NCBI GenBank assembly: GCA_947453935.1 | Contig: CANGJU010000003.1 | Location: 1 to 58,429 of the forward strand | Length of the DNA: 58,429 nucleotides | Direction: 5' to 3' | Source of the DNA: Bacteroidota bacterium | Lineage (GTDB): Bacteria; Bacteroidota; Bacteroidia; AKYH767-A; OLB10 | Shown here: positions 34,637-39,016 of the stretch, in pieces | Layout: every line of letters begins with the position of its first letter | Position numbering within the stretch: position 1 is the stretch's first letter | Translations under genes and position numbers: made by a program | The notes under the pieces: generated by a model | Seen by the model: the letters and a program-made list of their open reading frames with translations, nothing else | Databases searched by the model: none | What the model was told of the DNA's origin: nothing

Positions 34637-34987
34637 ATGAGAAAGCTAATTCTACTATTTGTTTTGTTATTAATTTTTAACAACACCCAAGCTCAAACCC
34701 AAGCTGAAATGAATCAGGCTGCTGCGAAAGGATATTATAAAGCCGATGCAGAGCTGAATAAGGTTTATAAAATTCTAATGTCGAAGCTAGATGAGAATGG
34801 AAAAAGCCTTTTAATCAAAGCAGAAAACGACTGGATTAAATATCGTGAATCACATTGTAAATTTGAAGCATCTTTTTACGAGGGTGGCAGTATGCAACCA
34901 ATGATTTATTCGAGTTGTTTAGAAAGTGTCACTATGGAGCGAATAAAAGAACTGAAAGAGGCGATTAAAGAGTTTGGTGAATATTGA
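34637..34987 (+). CDS. LprI (DUF1311) lysozyme-inhibitor family protein
   Basis: Signal peptide; AQTQAEMN, ADAELNKVY, WIKYRESHC, GGSMQPM...C....T.ERIKEL. Confidence 0.85.
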   Translation: MRKLILLFVLLLIFNNTQAQTQAEMNQAAAKGYYKADAELNKVYKILMSKLDENGKSLLIKAENDWIKYRESHCKFEASFYEGGSMQPMIYSSCLESVTMERIKELKEAIKEFGEY

Positions 34988-35492: not shown

Positions 35493-35837
35493 ATGATAAA
35501 AAAATTACTGTTATCGGCTACGGCGGTAGGACTTTTAATGACTATTTCCTGTAATCAATCTAATCCTGAAGTTTCAAAGAATATTAAGTGGCGGGCAAGA
35601 ACCATTAAAAAAAACAAATTGGTTTATGCATTTAATATTGATTCCTTACCGGTAAAAGCAGGCGATACAGTCTTGTTGAATTACAACAGTGAGTCGTTGG
35701 GTTATTATATAGCTAATGTAGCGTATCCTGTACGTGATACTGCTTATTTAGATACCTACGTCGATTCAAATGGGGTAGAGCAAAGCTATCATTATGAAGC
35801 AATCAATGTTGTTTTGTTGGATAATAGTGTCAGGTAG
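35493..35837 (+). CDS. Hypothetical lipoprotein (ATG at 35493 preferred)
   Basis: MIKKLLLSATAVGLLMTISC lipobox-like signal. Confidence 0.65.
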   Translation: MIKKLLLSATAVGLLMTISCNQSNPEVSKNIKWRARTIKKNKLVYAFNIDSLPVKAGDTVLLNYNSESLGYYIANVAYPVRDTAYLDTYVDSNGVEQSYHYEAINVVLLDNSVR

Positions 35838-35923
35838 TAGGTTGTAAATTAGTATTGAATTTCAATACATTTTAATTTATTAACAGCTCAGAAAAAATTC
35901 AAACCAAATAATAATTTCACTTC

Positions 35924-36964
35924 ATGAAATATAGTTTACGAGAAAAATTAGAAAATATTATTCAAAATGAAGCTTTCAGTGATTCAGAAATCTCGCTTCG
36001 ATTAATTAATTTAATTAACCAATTAGATTTACATCAACCCGTTAAGAAGGAAGCGAAATCCATTAGTAATTTATATGAATCTACTTTATCAGAGGTTAAC
36101 ACTGACAAGCTGAATCATAATTATATTAAAAGTGGATTTACCACATTTGATAAGTCGATTCGAGGTTTTATACCTGGTGAATTTGTAGTGATTGGCGGAC
36201 GACCTGGAATGGGTAAGACACAGTTTGCAATTAATCTTGCAATAAATATTTCAAAAACGCATAAATCGCAATTTTACACCTATGATGATACTGAAGAAAG
36301 TATCATGAGGCGTATACTTTCTAATCTATGTCATATTCCAACATTCAAATTTGATTATAATGAGTTGTCGGATATTAACAAGGATATGATTAACAAGATT
36401 GGACCAATCGTTAATGAATTAAAATTACATGTTTCAGAATGTAATTACTTGAATTTTTTGGATTTCAAAGCTGACTTAATCAGGGATATAAAAGAGAAGG
36501 AACTAAAAGTAGTTTTCATCGATTTCTTGCAAGCCATTATTCCTTCGAAAACAAGATATAACCGCGAATTTGAAATTGGCTACGTATGTCGCGAGTTAAA
36601 AATGATTGCTAAAGAATTTAATGTTTGCATTATTACTACTTGCCAGTTAAGCAGAGCTGTTGAAACAAGAGGTTCTTCTAAACGTCCACAACTTTCAGAT
36701 TTAAGAGATAGTGGTTCCATAGAACAAGAAGCAGACAAAGTATTGATGTTGTATCGTCCGGAATATTATCAGCTGGAAACTTTAGAAGATGGAACAACTA
36801 CCAAAGGATTGATGGAAGTGATGGTAGTTAAAAATAGATGTGGAAAAATAGATTATATCCCTTTACGCTGTCTAATGGCAATTTGTCTGATACAAGATTA
36901 TAACTATTTCGAAGATGATTTTGATTTTGTGGAAAATCGTTTATTTGATCTTCCTGATTTTTAA
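35924..36964 (+). CDS. DnaB-like SF4 helicase C-terminal domain protein lacking the N-terminal domain; candidate retron partner
   Basis: H1 GGRPGMGKT, H2 FIDFLQ, H3 RELKMIAKE..CQLSRAVETR, H4 RPQLSDLRDSGSIEQEAD, KNRCG. Walker A lies at about residue 92. Confidence 0.9.
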   Translation: MKYSLREKLENIIQNEAFSDSEISLRLINLINQLDLHQPVKKEAKSISNLYESTLSEVNTDKLNHNYIKSGFTTFDKSIRGFIPGEFVVIGGRPGMGKTQFAINLAINISKTHKSQFYTYDDTEESIMRRILSNLCHIPTFKFDYNELSDINKDMINKIGPIVNELKLHVSECNYLNFLDFKADLIRDIKEKELKVVFIDFLQAIIPSKTRYNREFEIGYVCRELKMIAKEFNVCIITTCQLSRAVETRGSSKRPQLSDLRDSGSIEQEADKVLMLYRPEYYQLETLEDGTTTKGLMEVMVVKNRCGKIDYIPLRCLMAICLIQDYNYFEDDFDFVENRLFDLPDF

Positions 36965-36984
36965 TATATAAAAAATAAAAACCT

Positions 36985-37149
36985 AGAGCCGTTGCAATCA
37001 ACATTATGATGTCAACATATAGAGACATGGTGGTTGTGTTCCTGCAACCCGTGATCAGTTGGGTAAGGCTAATCGACTATTTATTTGTCGCTCGCTACGC
37101 TCACTCCTCATAAATAGTATCTGCAATCAAGATAATGGACAACGGCTCT
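36985..37149 (+). ncRNA. Putative retron msr-msd ncRNA
   Basis: Terminal inverted repeat agagccgttg (36985-36994) / caacggctct (37140-37149); stem-loop ggttg...caacc (37032-37049); hairpin actatttat/ataaatagt (37076-37118); ends 10 nt before the RT ATG. Confidence 0.8.
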
Positions 37150-37159
37150 TTTTAAATTT

Positions 37160-38317
37160 ATGAAACACAAAGAAAGAATAGATTTAATACTTCGTGAATA
37201 TCGCGATGAAGTCTGGCGTTTTAGTGACCTGGAGGAATGTTATAACTTTCTTAAGCAAAATCATATTGGAGCAAAAAGACATGAGATTAAATCGGCAATG
37301 CTTTTATCGATGAAGAAACATGTGGATATTGCTCGATTGATTTCTCACGACATTTTTGATTTAAAAGAGTTAGTTAATAATCCCGTTTACTCATCCTATA
37401 AGATTGGGAAAAAATCGGGTGGATTTCGTTTAATTGATAGTCCCGATGAAAAACTAAAAAAGGCGCATCGAAATTTAAATTCATTTTTGCAATCCTATTA
37501 TTTATGTATCAAGCCTGAGTCTGTCCATGGATTCGTGCCTGATTTTTACAGGATTCAAAGACGAATTAATATTGTTGAAAATGCAAAGCCACACGTAGGT
37601 AAAAAATATGTTTTAAATATCGACTTAAAAAATTTCTTTGATACCATATCAGCACAAAGGGTTTATCAGTTATTTATTGGAAAGCATTTTGACTATAACA
37701 AGTCGGTAGCAGCCGCATTAGTATTATTGGTTTCTTACAAGGGGAAACTGCCAACGGGCGCACCAACATCTCCTGTTATCTCCAATTTTATTTGTCTCGA
37801 ATTAGATCAATGTCTGATGGAGTTTTGTAAAACCTATAACTTGACTTATACTCGTTATGCGGATGACTTAACATTTTCGTCAGATCATGAAATTTCTGAT
37901 TTGTTATTGTTGATGATTAAAGAGATTATTCAGTTGAATGGATTTAAAGTGAACAATAAGAAAGTGAGAATAAAATCTAGTGCTCGTCAGCAGATGGTAA
38001 CAGGTTTAGTGGTAAATCAAAAAATAAATGTCGATAGAAAATTGATTAAGCAGGTGCGTGCAATGATTCATCATACCAAAGTAAATGGATTAACAGAAGC
38101 AACAAAAAAGCATTTTAGATTATCTGACGAAAAGGACGTGGGACCTTACAGAAAATTATTTCTTGATAAACTTGTAGGATTAATCAATTTTATTGGATTA
38201 ATCAGAGGAAAACTTGATGCTGTATTTTTAAAATTGGAAGATGATTTTTGTAGTCTTGAATTCAACAAGCCTACTATCAAGAATCCAGTGAATAACTATT
38301 ACAGTGTAGATTTTTAA
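37160..38317 (+). CDS. Retron-type reverse transcriptase
   Basis: KKSGGFRLIDSP, HGF, region X NAKPH (NAxxH), IDLKNFFDTI, LPTGAPTSPVISN, YTRYADDLTFS, region Y VTGLVVN. Confidence 0.93.
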   Translation: MKHKERIDLILREYRDEVWRFSDLEECYNFLKQNHIGAKRHEIKSAMLLSMKKHVDIARLISHDIFDLKELVNNPVYSSYKIGKKSGGFRLIDSPDEKLKKAHRNLNSFLQSYYLCIKPESVHGFVPDFYRIQRRINIVENAKPHVGKKYVLNIDLKNFFDTISAQRVYQLFIGKHFDYNKSVAAALVLLVSYKGKLPTGAPTSPVISNFICLELDQCLMEFCKTYNLTYTRYADDLTFSSDHEISDLLLLMIKEIIQLNGFKVNNKKVRIKSSARQQMVTGLVVNQKINVDRKLIKQVRAMIHHTKVNGLTEATKKHFRLSDEKDVGPYRKLFLDKLVGLINFIGLIRGKLDAVFLKLEDDFCSLEFNKPTIKNPVNNYYSVDF

Positions 38318-38329
38318 TTAATTTATTAA

Positions 38330-39016
38330 ATGAAAAAAGTAATTTTATTTTTAGTAGTAATTGCCTTAGCAGGAGGCGCAGTTTTTTATTTTAAATTTTA
38401 TAGGATTGATAAGAAGCCCAAAGTTGCACATAATGGATGTTGGGGTATAGACATATCACATTACCAAAAAAACATTAATTACGATAAACTAATTAAGGAG
38501 AATAAACCTGCTTATGTTTATTTAAAAACTTCACAAGGGAATTCTATGGTTGATGATCTATATGCGGATCGTTTGAAAAAATTCCGCGAATTAGGTATTC
38601 CAGTTGGGGGTTATCATTTTTTCAATTACAATGTGAGTGGTAAAGAGCAGGCGGAACATTATATAAAAACGGCTAATTTGCAAAAAGGCGATTTATATCC
38701 TGTGTTAGATGTGGAGATGAAACACAGTAGTTCCCAAAGTAAACAATGGATTGTAAGAGAAATAAAATCATTTTGTGTAGAAGTAAAAGCAGAGTATGGT
38801 GTGGAGCCACTTATATATTGTGAATACGATTACTACCATAAATATTTGAAGGATGATTTTGGTGATTACCAGTATTGGATTAGCGACTTTGTAAGAGCTC
38901 CTCGTTGTAAATATGTGATGTGGCAATACGATATTTTACATGTTAATGGAGTTGGGAGCATTGATAATAATCGTTTAGCTGAAGGTGTGAGGTTGGAGCA
39001 GCTTATTTTGAAATAA
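38330..39016 (+). CDS. GH25 muramidase (lysozyme) with N-terminal membrane anchor
   Basis: GIDISHYQ, GGYHFF, PVLDVE (DxE), PLIY, YWISD, MWQY. Confidence 0.9.
   Translation: MKKVILFLVVIALAGGAVFYFKFYRIDKKPKVAHNGCWGIDISHYQKNINYDKLIKENKPAYVYLKTSQGNSMVDDLYADRLKKFRELGIPVGGYHFFNYNVSGKEQAEHYIKTANLQKGDLYPVLDVEMKHSSSQSKQWIVREIKSFCVEVKAEYGVEPLIYCEYDYYHKYLKDDFGDYQYWISDFVRAPRCKYVMWQYDILHVNGVGSIDNNRLAEGVRLEQLILK

Follow-up and report, generated by a model that had tools for sequence, protein, structure and literature searches.

A Bacteroidota retron with a truncated DnaB-like partner protein and host-matched loops

Background

Retrons in which a type XI-like reverse transcriptase (RT) is accompanied by a DnaB_C protein have been described by Toro (mSystems Sept 2026, PMC13712802; bioRxiv May 2026, 10.64898/2026.05.14.725207) under the name TXI_noncan_h, a group of clade-8 retron RTs without the protease. 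Its members come from Bacillota and Bacteroidota, carry an upstream a1/a2 non-coding RNA (ncRNA), and have adjacent DnaB_C proteins in 20 of 29 curated loci; the partner was placed at +1 in 14 loci and at -1 in 5, with genes ordered by contig coordinate, apparently without strand normalisation (PMC13712802). The group is known from sequence analysis only and its function is called unclear by Toro, whose discussion proposes a replication-related or structural role for the DnaB_C partner (PMC13712802). In Mestre et al. 2020 no ncRNA was found for type XI retrons, and no helicase, RecA or KaiC partner is named (PMC7736814). Here we describe a related element of a Bacteroidota bacterium, composed of a DnaB-like gene, an msr-msd ncRNA and a retron RT gene, which lies on contig CANGJU010000003.1 (assembly GCA_947453935.1); positions 1-58,429 of this contig are referred to as the window.

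The element shares with TXI_noncan_h a clade-8, type XI-like RT without a protease, a separate adjacent DnaB_C gene, the presence of Bacteroidota members, a conserved a1/a2 ncRNA with two stem-loops within about 100 bp upstream of the RT, and the computational nature of the evidence. By every described feature the window family is of the same kind as TXI_noncan_h, the two lineages being matched by description only. An earlier note on this DNA, made from the sequence alone, had presented the trio as an undescribed system; this can no longer be maintained, as DnaB_C-partnered type XI-like retrons are already in Toro 2026 (PMC13712802). The list of retron effector classes given in the same note, which included no helicase, agrees with Mestre et al. 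2020 (PMC7736814).

The data reported below are best explained by a retron which acts against phages and has as its effector a defective DnaB subunit, matched to the host and arresting replication once it is released, a reading to which we give about an even chance of being right.

Organisation and conservation of the unit

The three parts form a plus-strand array, made up of the DnaB-like gene (35924-36964), the msr-msd RNA (36985-37149) and the RT gene (37160-38317). The DnaB-like stop is separated by 20 nt from a1, the first arm of the inverted repeat which bounds the RNA, and the second arm, a2, is separated by 10 nt from the RT ATG. No terminator-like site was found between the DnaB-like gene, the ncRNA and the RT; the TAnnTTTG motif is absent from 400 nt upstream of the DnaB-like start through the RT start, and the sequence before a1 has no conserved promoter of either the sigma-70-like or the Bacteroidota TAnnTTTG type. 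Coordinates, strand and spacing are those given in the earlier note, and the scans agree with its statement that no terminator or TAnnTTTG box lies between the parts. The DnaB-like gene, the ncRNA and the RT are probably transcribed as a single unit. Separate transcription of the ncRNA was also considered and is unsupported, given the lack of a conserved promoter before a1 and of a terminator between the parts.

At window positions 37140-37159, as at the corresponding site of 69 related loci, the a2 arm runs straight into a T-rich tract, with a mean of 5.6 T in the next 8 nt. The combination of a long a1/a2 helix with a U-tract just before the RT start is reminiscent of an intrinsic terminator, which could restrict RT expression or set the 3' end of the ncRNA.

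Relatives were collected by an RT-alignment-based scan of one GTDB genome per species. The scan returned 389 relatives, and the best 80 of the 389 loci were taken for comparison. In each of the 78 loci with enough upstream DNA, the RT is immediately preceded by a DnaB_C-like open reading frame (ORF) of the same strand, the remaining 2 of the 80 being interrupted by a contig end upstream. The 78 upstream partners range between 322 and 368 aa and are 33-54% identical. The spacer between partner and RT measures mostly 165-210 bp, with family medians of 9 nt from the partner stop to a1, about 164 nt for the ncRNA and 11 nt from a2 to the RT start. Distances calculated for RT and partner are correlated (Mantel r = 0.83, a value reached by 0 of 999 permutations): the two proteins co-evolve. 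A short extra DnaB copy is present in about 6 of 41 relatives, and a full-length DnaB in 39 of the 41. Non-pathogenic isolates with a module include Flavobacterium aciduliphilum DSM 25663 and F. cheonanense JCM 17069.

The window flanks are of housekeeping type, and include genes for a rhodanese protein, an AIR-synthase-family protein, LprI, a GH25 lysozyme and PntAB. Flanks differ from locus to locus, ranging from housekeeping through defence genes (PD-T4-6 kinase, DpdF, RecD-like, WYL, SoFic). No universal third gene was found among the loci, WYL, RecD-like and other neighbours being sporadic. Because order and spacing are kept in 78 of 78 loci, the ncRNA stem covaries (see below), RT and partner co-evolve and the flanks vary, the association is that of a real unit and not a chance adjacency. 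The trio is a self-contained, conserved three-part retron, with the DnaB-like protein as its one constant partner; within Bacteroidota its distribution is patchy and it moves horizontally. The earlier note had claimed a tripartite unit, and had proposed to look for recurrence of a truncated DnaB-like gene with an intergenic ncRNA upstream of RT homologues and for congruence of RT and helicase; the claim is borne out by the co-occurrence, the co-evolution, the covarying ncRNA and the variable flanks, recurrence is seen in all 78 loci, and the Mantel correlation speaks for congruence.

A helicase gene beside a polymerase gene may superficially resemble a replication module, and the trio could be imagined as a mobile-element unit in which the helicase and an RT-made primer would serve to copy a plasmid, phage or satellite. 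One distant relative, L115, is indeed located on a predicted viral contig. However, the flanks are chromosomal and unrelated between loci, and no integrase or replication initiator recurs in them; plasmid and phage records did not yield the close family, their RT matches reaching at most about 42% identity and representing other retron types (TIR, Ec67 and others); and the partner, as described below, misses the primase-binding head and has an altered catalytic Glu. A replication unit is, on this evidence, hardly credible.

L115 (L115:3004-7616, IMGVR_UViG_3300005144_000001) is the only one among the plasmid and phage RT matches with a DnaB_C neighbour, and represents a distant variant of the same architecture. 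Its DnaB_C protein is 284 aa long, has a GMGRT Walker A (Lys to Arg), and lacks both N-terminal hairpin and PF tail. A 170-bp spacer leads to a 320-aa RT (38% identical), which is overlapped by a 252-aa ORF without Pfam match; a WYL-WCX regulator is encoded upstream, on the opposite strand. Loci L006, L009, L026, L040 and L058 sit in metagenome-assembled genomes labelled Bifidobacteriaceae, Akkermansia, Ignavibacteria, Sumerlaeota or Rhizobium, odd labels which are most likely due to mis-binning, or possibly to inter-phylum transfer.

A DUF3127 gene (about 115 aa, PF11325 1e-30, product ending in ...D(D/G)LPF) was found in 10 of 79 loci. In 8 of the 79 it is located directly 3' of the RT, on the same strand, at about 65 bp, and all of these belong to one Flavobacterium-like subclade with a shorter msd. 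The loci concerned are L037, L039, L041, L052, L058, L060 and L062 (about 65 bp after the RT), plus L030, L074 and L077. The DUF3127 protein, which is similar to an oligonucleotide/oligosaccharide-binding (OB) fold, may be a subclade-specific fourth component with a tail like that of the single-stranded DNA-binding protein, SSB.

In the window, a lysozyme-inhibitor gene of the LprI family (34637-34987) lies upstream of the retron and the GH25 lysozyme gene (38330-39016) directly downstream. A GH25 gene is also found 3' of the RT in L001 and in one further locus, probably as a result of local synteny among close relatives.

The DnaB-like partner

The partner gene (35924-36964, + strand) encodes a protein of 346 aa, matched by Pfam DnaB_C over residues 68-316 (2.7e-63). 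The protein scores under every DnaB equivalog cut-off; with TIGR00665 it obtains 221 bits vs a cut-off of 385, and the alignment starts at model position 146. Its structure, as predicted by AlphaFold2 (AF2; predicted local distance difference test, pLDDT, 86; predicted template modelling score, pTM, 0.81), consists of a two-helix hairpin (residues 2-34), a linker helix (47-59), a RecA-like core (68-325) and a flexible, disordered tail. The top Foldseek matches of this model are full-length DnaBs, with about 335 of the 346 residues aligned. According to the predicted structure, the partner is a DnaB minus the globular N-terminal head only. In DnaB, the globular head contributes to the N-terminal collar and to the primase site. 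The same genome has its own full-length DnaB (513 aa), encoded on another contig.

The Walker A motif, or P-loop, GRPGMGKT (residues 91-99; 36194-36220, + strand) is intact, residues G91, R93, P94, G97, K98 and T99 being invariant in 44 family members. By alignment to Aquifex DnaB (4nmn), Asp121 (36284-36286, + strand) occupies the position of the DnaB catalytic Glu; D121 is conserved in at least 90% of the partner family, and the host DnaB has E. The surrounding DnaB sequence FSLEMS (motif H1a, SLEM) aligns to YTYDDT in the window and to TFDLS in the family consensus. In V. cholerae DnaB, Glu259 is part of the catalytic centre (bioRxiv 10.1101/2024.11.09.622779). The conserved partner motifs are the P-loop GRPxMGKTQ, the Walker B D-[YF]-LQ, the H3 motif SQLSR, the DLRxSG loop and the Lys/Arg finger AKNR, the finger itself being K303/R305 in KNR. 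The DLRESG loop is reported to bind single-stranded DNA (ssDNA), as in the Bst DnaB-ssDNA structure 4ESV.

The C-terminal tail (36920-36961, + strand; pLDDT about 50) is flexible and acidic, and ends in ...RLFDLPDF. In about three quarters of the partner family, the C-terminus consists of acidic residues and a final (P)PF, PF or DF. Tails of the SRMNDM..(D/E)..PF type were found on housekeeping full-length DnaBs of the same Bacteroidota order in 30 of the 30 cases examined (L081, L084-L112; the window's genome and 29 relatives). Their tips consist of an acidic stretch plus PF, DF, EF, LF, MF or AF, and resemble the C-terminal tip of SSB, which in the window's genome ends in ...SHEPF. Because 30 of 30 full-length Bacteroidota DnaBs share it, the acidic ...PF tail of the partner is, judging from these alignments, inherited from Bacteroidota DnaB. 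A literature search on the acidic ...PF tail of Bacteroidota DnaB found no paper. The presence of an SSB-like tail on these DnaBs bears on helicase loading, given that Bacteroidetes DciA is reported to be mostly a bare DciA domain, without the extensions needed for function in other phyla (bioRxiv 10.1101/2022.01.24.477630).

Host-tracking loops

The window copy and the DnaB of its own genome share a stretch deviating from the family consensus. Each of 32 retron DnaB copies, from about 26 host groups, was therefore compared with the full-length DnaB encoded in its own genome. If the copies go back to one ancient duplication, none should resemble the DnaB of its own host more than those of others. 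Across the whole alignment, the excess of identity to the own host is small (35.8% vs 33.8%, p = 1e-4). It is limited to residues 237-263 (peak 0.17) and 273-302 (peak 0.22), where the family-wise 5% threshold is 0.048, and is about zero elsewhere. The first segment (36632-36712, + strand) comprises motif H3 and a variable loop leading into the DLRxSG loop; the second (36740-36829, + strand) is the beta-hairpin with the trans-acting Lys/Arg finger, directly followed by K303 and R305. The DnaB ATP site is composite, and the arginine finger of the beta-hairpin docks on the ATP site of the neighbouring subunit (bioRxiv 10.1101/2024.11.09.622779).

Over the 29 loop columns, identity is 0.64 to the own host vs 0.46 to other hosts; for the window copy, the two loops are identical to the own host DnaB at 0.90, vs 0.48 to the others. 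In 19 of the 32 pairs, where about 1 is expected, no other host matches the copy as well as its own; the same applies to 16 of the 26 host groups, isolate genomes included. Host-specific indels and oddities are common to copy and host, as in L070 (GINNNEYGEKVEGET vs GINNNEMGETVEGET), L032 (ERREGN-RP in both) and L064 (RPG-KRP in both).

Where residues are identical, the third codon positions agree at 0.453 vs 0.419 in the patch formed by the two segments, and at 0.464 vs 0.406 outside it. The third-position excess reflects shared codon usage. Two other sources of the host match were rejected: recent gene conversion or assembly chimeras, since the third-position excess is equal inside and outside the patch, and a separate origin of each copy from the dnaB of its host, since all copies group in a single clade and have an own-host excess of about zero beyond the patch.

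Outside the patch, agreement between module and host phylogeny is weak (r = 0.20). The module moves between hosts, yet the loops fit the current host; the match therefore holds despite horizontal movement.

Proposed role of the partner and alternatives

With docking and DNA loops like those of the host, a weakened catalytic residue and no N-terminal head, the partner looks like a dominant-negative DnaB subunit. Among the roles suggested in the earlier note (replisome poison, decoy, msDNA binding), the host-matching loops, as far as can be judged from sequence, favour a poison or mimic. The corresponding mechanism would be a switch of the toxin-antitoxin type, with the DnaB-like protein as the poison, a proposal made by analogy and with a little less than even confidence. 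RT and multicopy single-stranded DNA (msDNA) would keep the DnaB-like protein inactive, and the msDNA single strand would plausibly fill its DNA-binding channel. Phage disturbance of the msDNA, of the RT complex or of the replication machinery would free the protein, which could then enter or dock on resident DnaB rings via its host-like arginine-finger hairpin, or compete for the partners of DnaB. The missing N-terminal head and the weakened ATP site would stall the hand-over-hand cycle, and cell and phage DNA replication would halt. In its most specific form, in which the partner is a host-tracking DnaB mimic, caged by RT-msDNA, which poisons the replisome by co-assembly or substitution and whose mimicry is renewed after each transfer, the proposal is more tentative and falls on the doubtful side.

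Several points weigh against an effector of this kind. The retron copies constitute one clade separate from host DnaBs, with support 1.0, and neither the linker helix nor the expected docking-helix region shows significant host tracking. In 8 of the 32 pairs there is no own-host loop match. PADLOC has no effector model for the partner, to which it gives weak matches only (mad8 and PDC-M01A). The E-to-D change is conservative, and the partner may be a working ATPase which forms its own homo-hexamers. Finally, old episodic conversion anchored on the flanking ultra-conserved motifs, combined with purifying selection, could yield the observed pattern without selection for mimicry.

The last point can be extended to a neutral account, in which the host match is a by-product of occasional ectopic conversion from dnaB to its paralogue, followed by ordinary constraint on a working ring ATPase; the partner would then have no need of a likeness to the host for its function. 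Near-identical flanking motifs (SQLSR, LSDLRESGxIEQDAD, YRPEYY, AKNR) would provide the seeds for conversion, the tracked residues make up a single block of about 66 aa flanked by the most conserved DnaB motifs, the shared host-specific indels favour sequence transfer over convergence, and eight of the 32 pairs lack host tracking. On the other hand, synonymous sites show no greater similarity inside the patch than outside, so that any conversions must be old; the loops are still host-like in 16 of 26 host groups although the module moves, and the nucleotide identity of the patch, now about 0.66, leaves little substrate for homologous exchange. We consider a purely neutral origin unlikely.

The copies without host tracking are those of L004, L007, L008, L015, L033, L046, L057 and L071, several of which are closest to the host of L050; recent horizontal acquisition or mis-binning of the contigs could account for them.

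The position of the tracked loops bears also on a decoy or guard function, in which the DnaB-like protein would mainly be a sensor, imitating the resident helicase and so luring phage loaders, DnaB inhibitors or SSB-tail binders, and disturbance of RT-msDNA would trigger the response; toxicity may then come from the same DnaB-like protein or from uncontrolled RT/msDNA. Host tracking concerns the inner DNA-binding loop and the finger hairpin between subunits, and not the outer surface known to bind loaders, and the linker helix, where loaders bind, does not itself track the host. The helix is nevertheless retained, together with two host-like loops and an acidic ...PF tail of host type, and in one subclade (8 of 79 loci) the RT is followed, after about 65 bp, by the OB-fold-like DUF3127 gene with its SSB-like ...LPF tail. 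Moreover, phage replication proteins trigger other retrons, as is reported of phage helicases for a type III-A3 retron (PMC12746101). With evidence on both sides, a decoy appears somewhat unlikely.

Reverse transcriptase and ncRNA

The RT (37160-38317, + strand) is a stand-alone retron RT of 385 aa, recognised by PADLOC, NCBIfam and Pfam scans and by invariant motif residues, and carries no fused effector domain. The PADLOC scan had been suggested in the earlier note, and its top profiles for this protein are all retron RT models: RT-Toprim_I-C (1.6e-94, 316 bits), RT-Protease_XI (1.8e-93, 312 bits) and RT-TIR_XII (3e-85, 285 bits). The matches span only the RT portion of these fused models, which are 475-529 positions long. 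Pfam finds RVT_1 alone (1e-20), and the best NCBIfam matches, the TIR and Ec67 retron RT models, are both under their cut-offs. The motifs NAKPH (141-145), LPTG (197-200), YADD (233-236) and VTG (280-282) are found where the note had located them, and the key residues of NAxxH, YADD and VTG are invariant across 39 RT homologues. By sequence comparison, the RT clearly belongs to retron clade 8 (types I-C/XI/XII), the clade but not the subtype being clear, as I-C and XI scores are near-tied. The RT family is very large, and is composed of stand-alone RTs of about 365-385 aa, almost all from Bacteroidota.

The ncRNA (36985-37149, + strand) is 165 nt long and is delimited by a perfect 10-nt inverted repeat, with a1 at 36985-36994 and a2 at 37140-37149; its assignment is based on this repeat, on the fold and on covariation. 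Retron msDNA branches from the 2'-OH of a guanosine at the end of a1. Here, a1 ends in a conserved G (GAGCCGTTG), the site expected for the predicted branch. In the minimum free energy (MFE) fold, two msr stem-loops are located, on the same strand, at 37006-37031 and 37032-37049 (the second being GGTTGTGTTCCTGCAACC), and are followed by the msd hairpin at 37076-37118 (+ strand), the presumed template of the msDNA, which is closed by the inverted repeat ACTATTTAT/ATAAATAGT at 37076-37084 / 37110-37118.

A stretch of 186 nt containing the ncRNA folds better than its shuffles (z = -2.5). RNAalifold analysis of 70 aligned spacers revealed compensatory double changes in 13 of 18 predicted pairs, all a1/a2 positions among them, with examples such as GAGCTGTCG/CGACAGCTC and GAATCGTTG/CAACGATTC across loci. 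The sequence of the second msr stem-loop is nearly invariant, and its compensatory variants are GGCTG/CAGCC and GATTG/CAATC. A search of Rfam over 35700-38500 found no retron or other family, but chance microRNA and snoRNA matches only. The msd loop consensus CGATGCTCACTnCGTTCCGCTTCTCAT is kept across loci whose proteins share only 35-55% identity. Such conservation is unusual for retron msd regions and suggests, as a sequence-based indication, that the msDNA may be recognised in a sequence-specific way.

The same conservation of the msd may be taken to support a further explanation, in which the DnaB-like protein is a non-toxic accessory of the ribonucleoprotein, a scaffold or motor for msDNA or for an RNA-DNA hybrid, and the defence output resides elsewhere. 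ATP-binding and ssDNA-binding motifs are conserved in the partner, and an accessory role is among those proposed in Toro's discussion (PMC13712802). However, no other conserved gene is available among the loci as a source of the effector, the related clade-8 retrons (I-C, XI, XII) fuse an effector to the RT, whereas the window RT has none, and the host-following of the loops is left unexplained. An accessory role is accordingly rated as quite improbable.

Significance

To our knowledge, the retron effectors found so far are nucleases, NAD- or nucleotide-modifying enzymes, membrane proteins and proteases. If the preferred reading of a defective, host-matched DnaB subunit is correct, and a truncated copy of the cell's own replicative helicase is the true effector, it would represent a different class of output, acting on the replisome itself; defence would operate by subunit poisoning of an essential host machine, with a mimicry renewed at each horizontal transfer. 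The family is large in Bacteroidota, where it extends to hundreds of species genomes. The host-matching loops supply a falsifiable hypothesis, together with the exact residues to be swapped, and the compact RT-ncRNA pair may be considered as a basis for retron editing tools to be used in Bacteroidota.

Comparison with known systems

The RT profiles nearest to the window RT are those of types XI (RT-protease), I-C (RT-Toprim, Ec67 family) and XII (RT-TIR). In these types a single gene encodes the RT with the effector fused to its C-terminus, whereas in the window a lone RT is accompanied by a separate upstream partner gene.

In the Ec78/Septu PtuAB retron, RT and msDNA sequester an ATPase-containing effector, which is freed on phage attack (PMC12819146). 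The logic of sequestration and release is common to the two systems by proposal. The effector considered here is instead a RecA-fold DnaB derivative without nuclease domain, and its proposed target is the replisome, not the cleavage of nucleic acids.

The partner is like the housekeeping DnaB of Bacteroidota in its C-terminal two thirds, where identity is about 39-42%, as well as in its motifs, its acidic ...PF tail and the two loops. It is unlike it in the lack of the globular N-terminal head, the Asp in place of the catalytic Glu, the sub-cut-off scores, the separate clade and the patchy distribution.

With respect to TXI_noncan_h, the present comparison rests on 389 relatives vs the 29 curated loci of Toro, and the partner precedes the RT on its own strand in 78 of 78 loci, whereas in Toro it is mostly 'downstream'; strand-normalised data thus correct the published gene order, the partner being always upstream. 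Toro makes no report of a lost N-terminal head, of Asp in place of the catalytic Glu, of the ...PF tail or of loops that track the host. What is new beyond Toro 2026 is the loss of the head, the E-to-D change, the inherited tail, the host-matched loops, the gene order and the size of the family.

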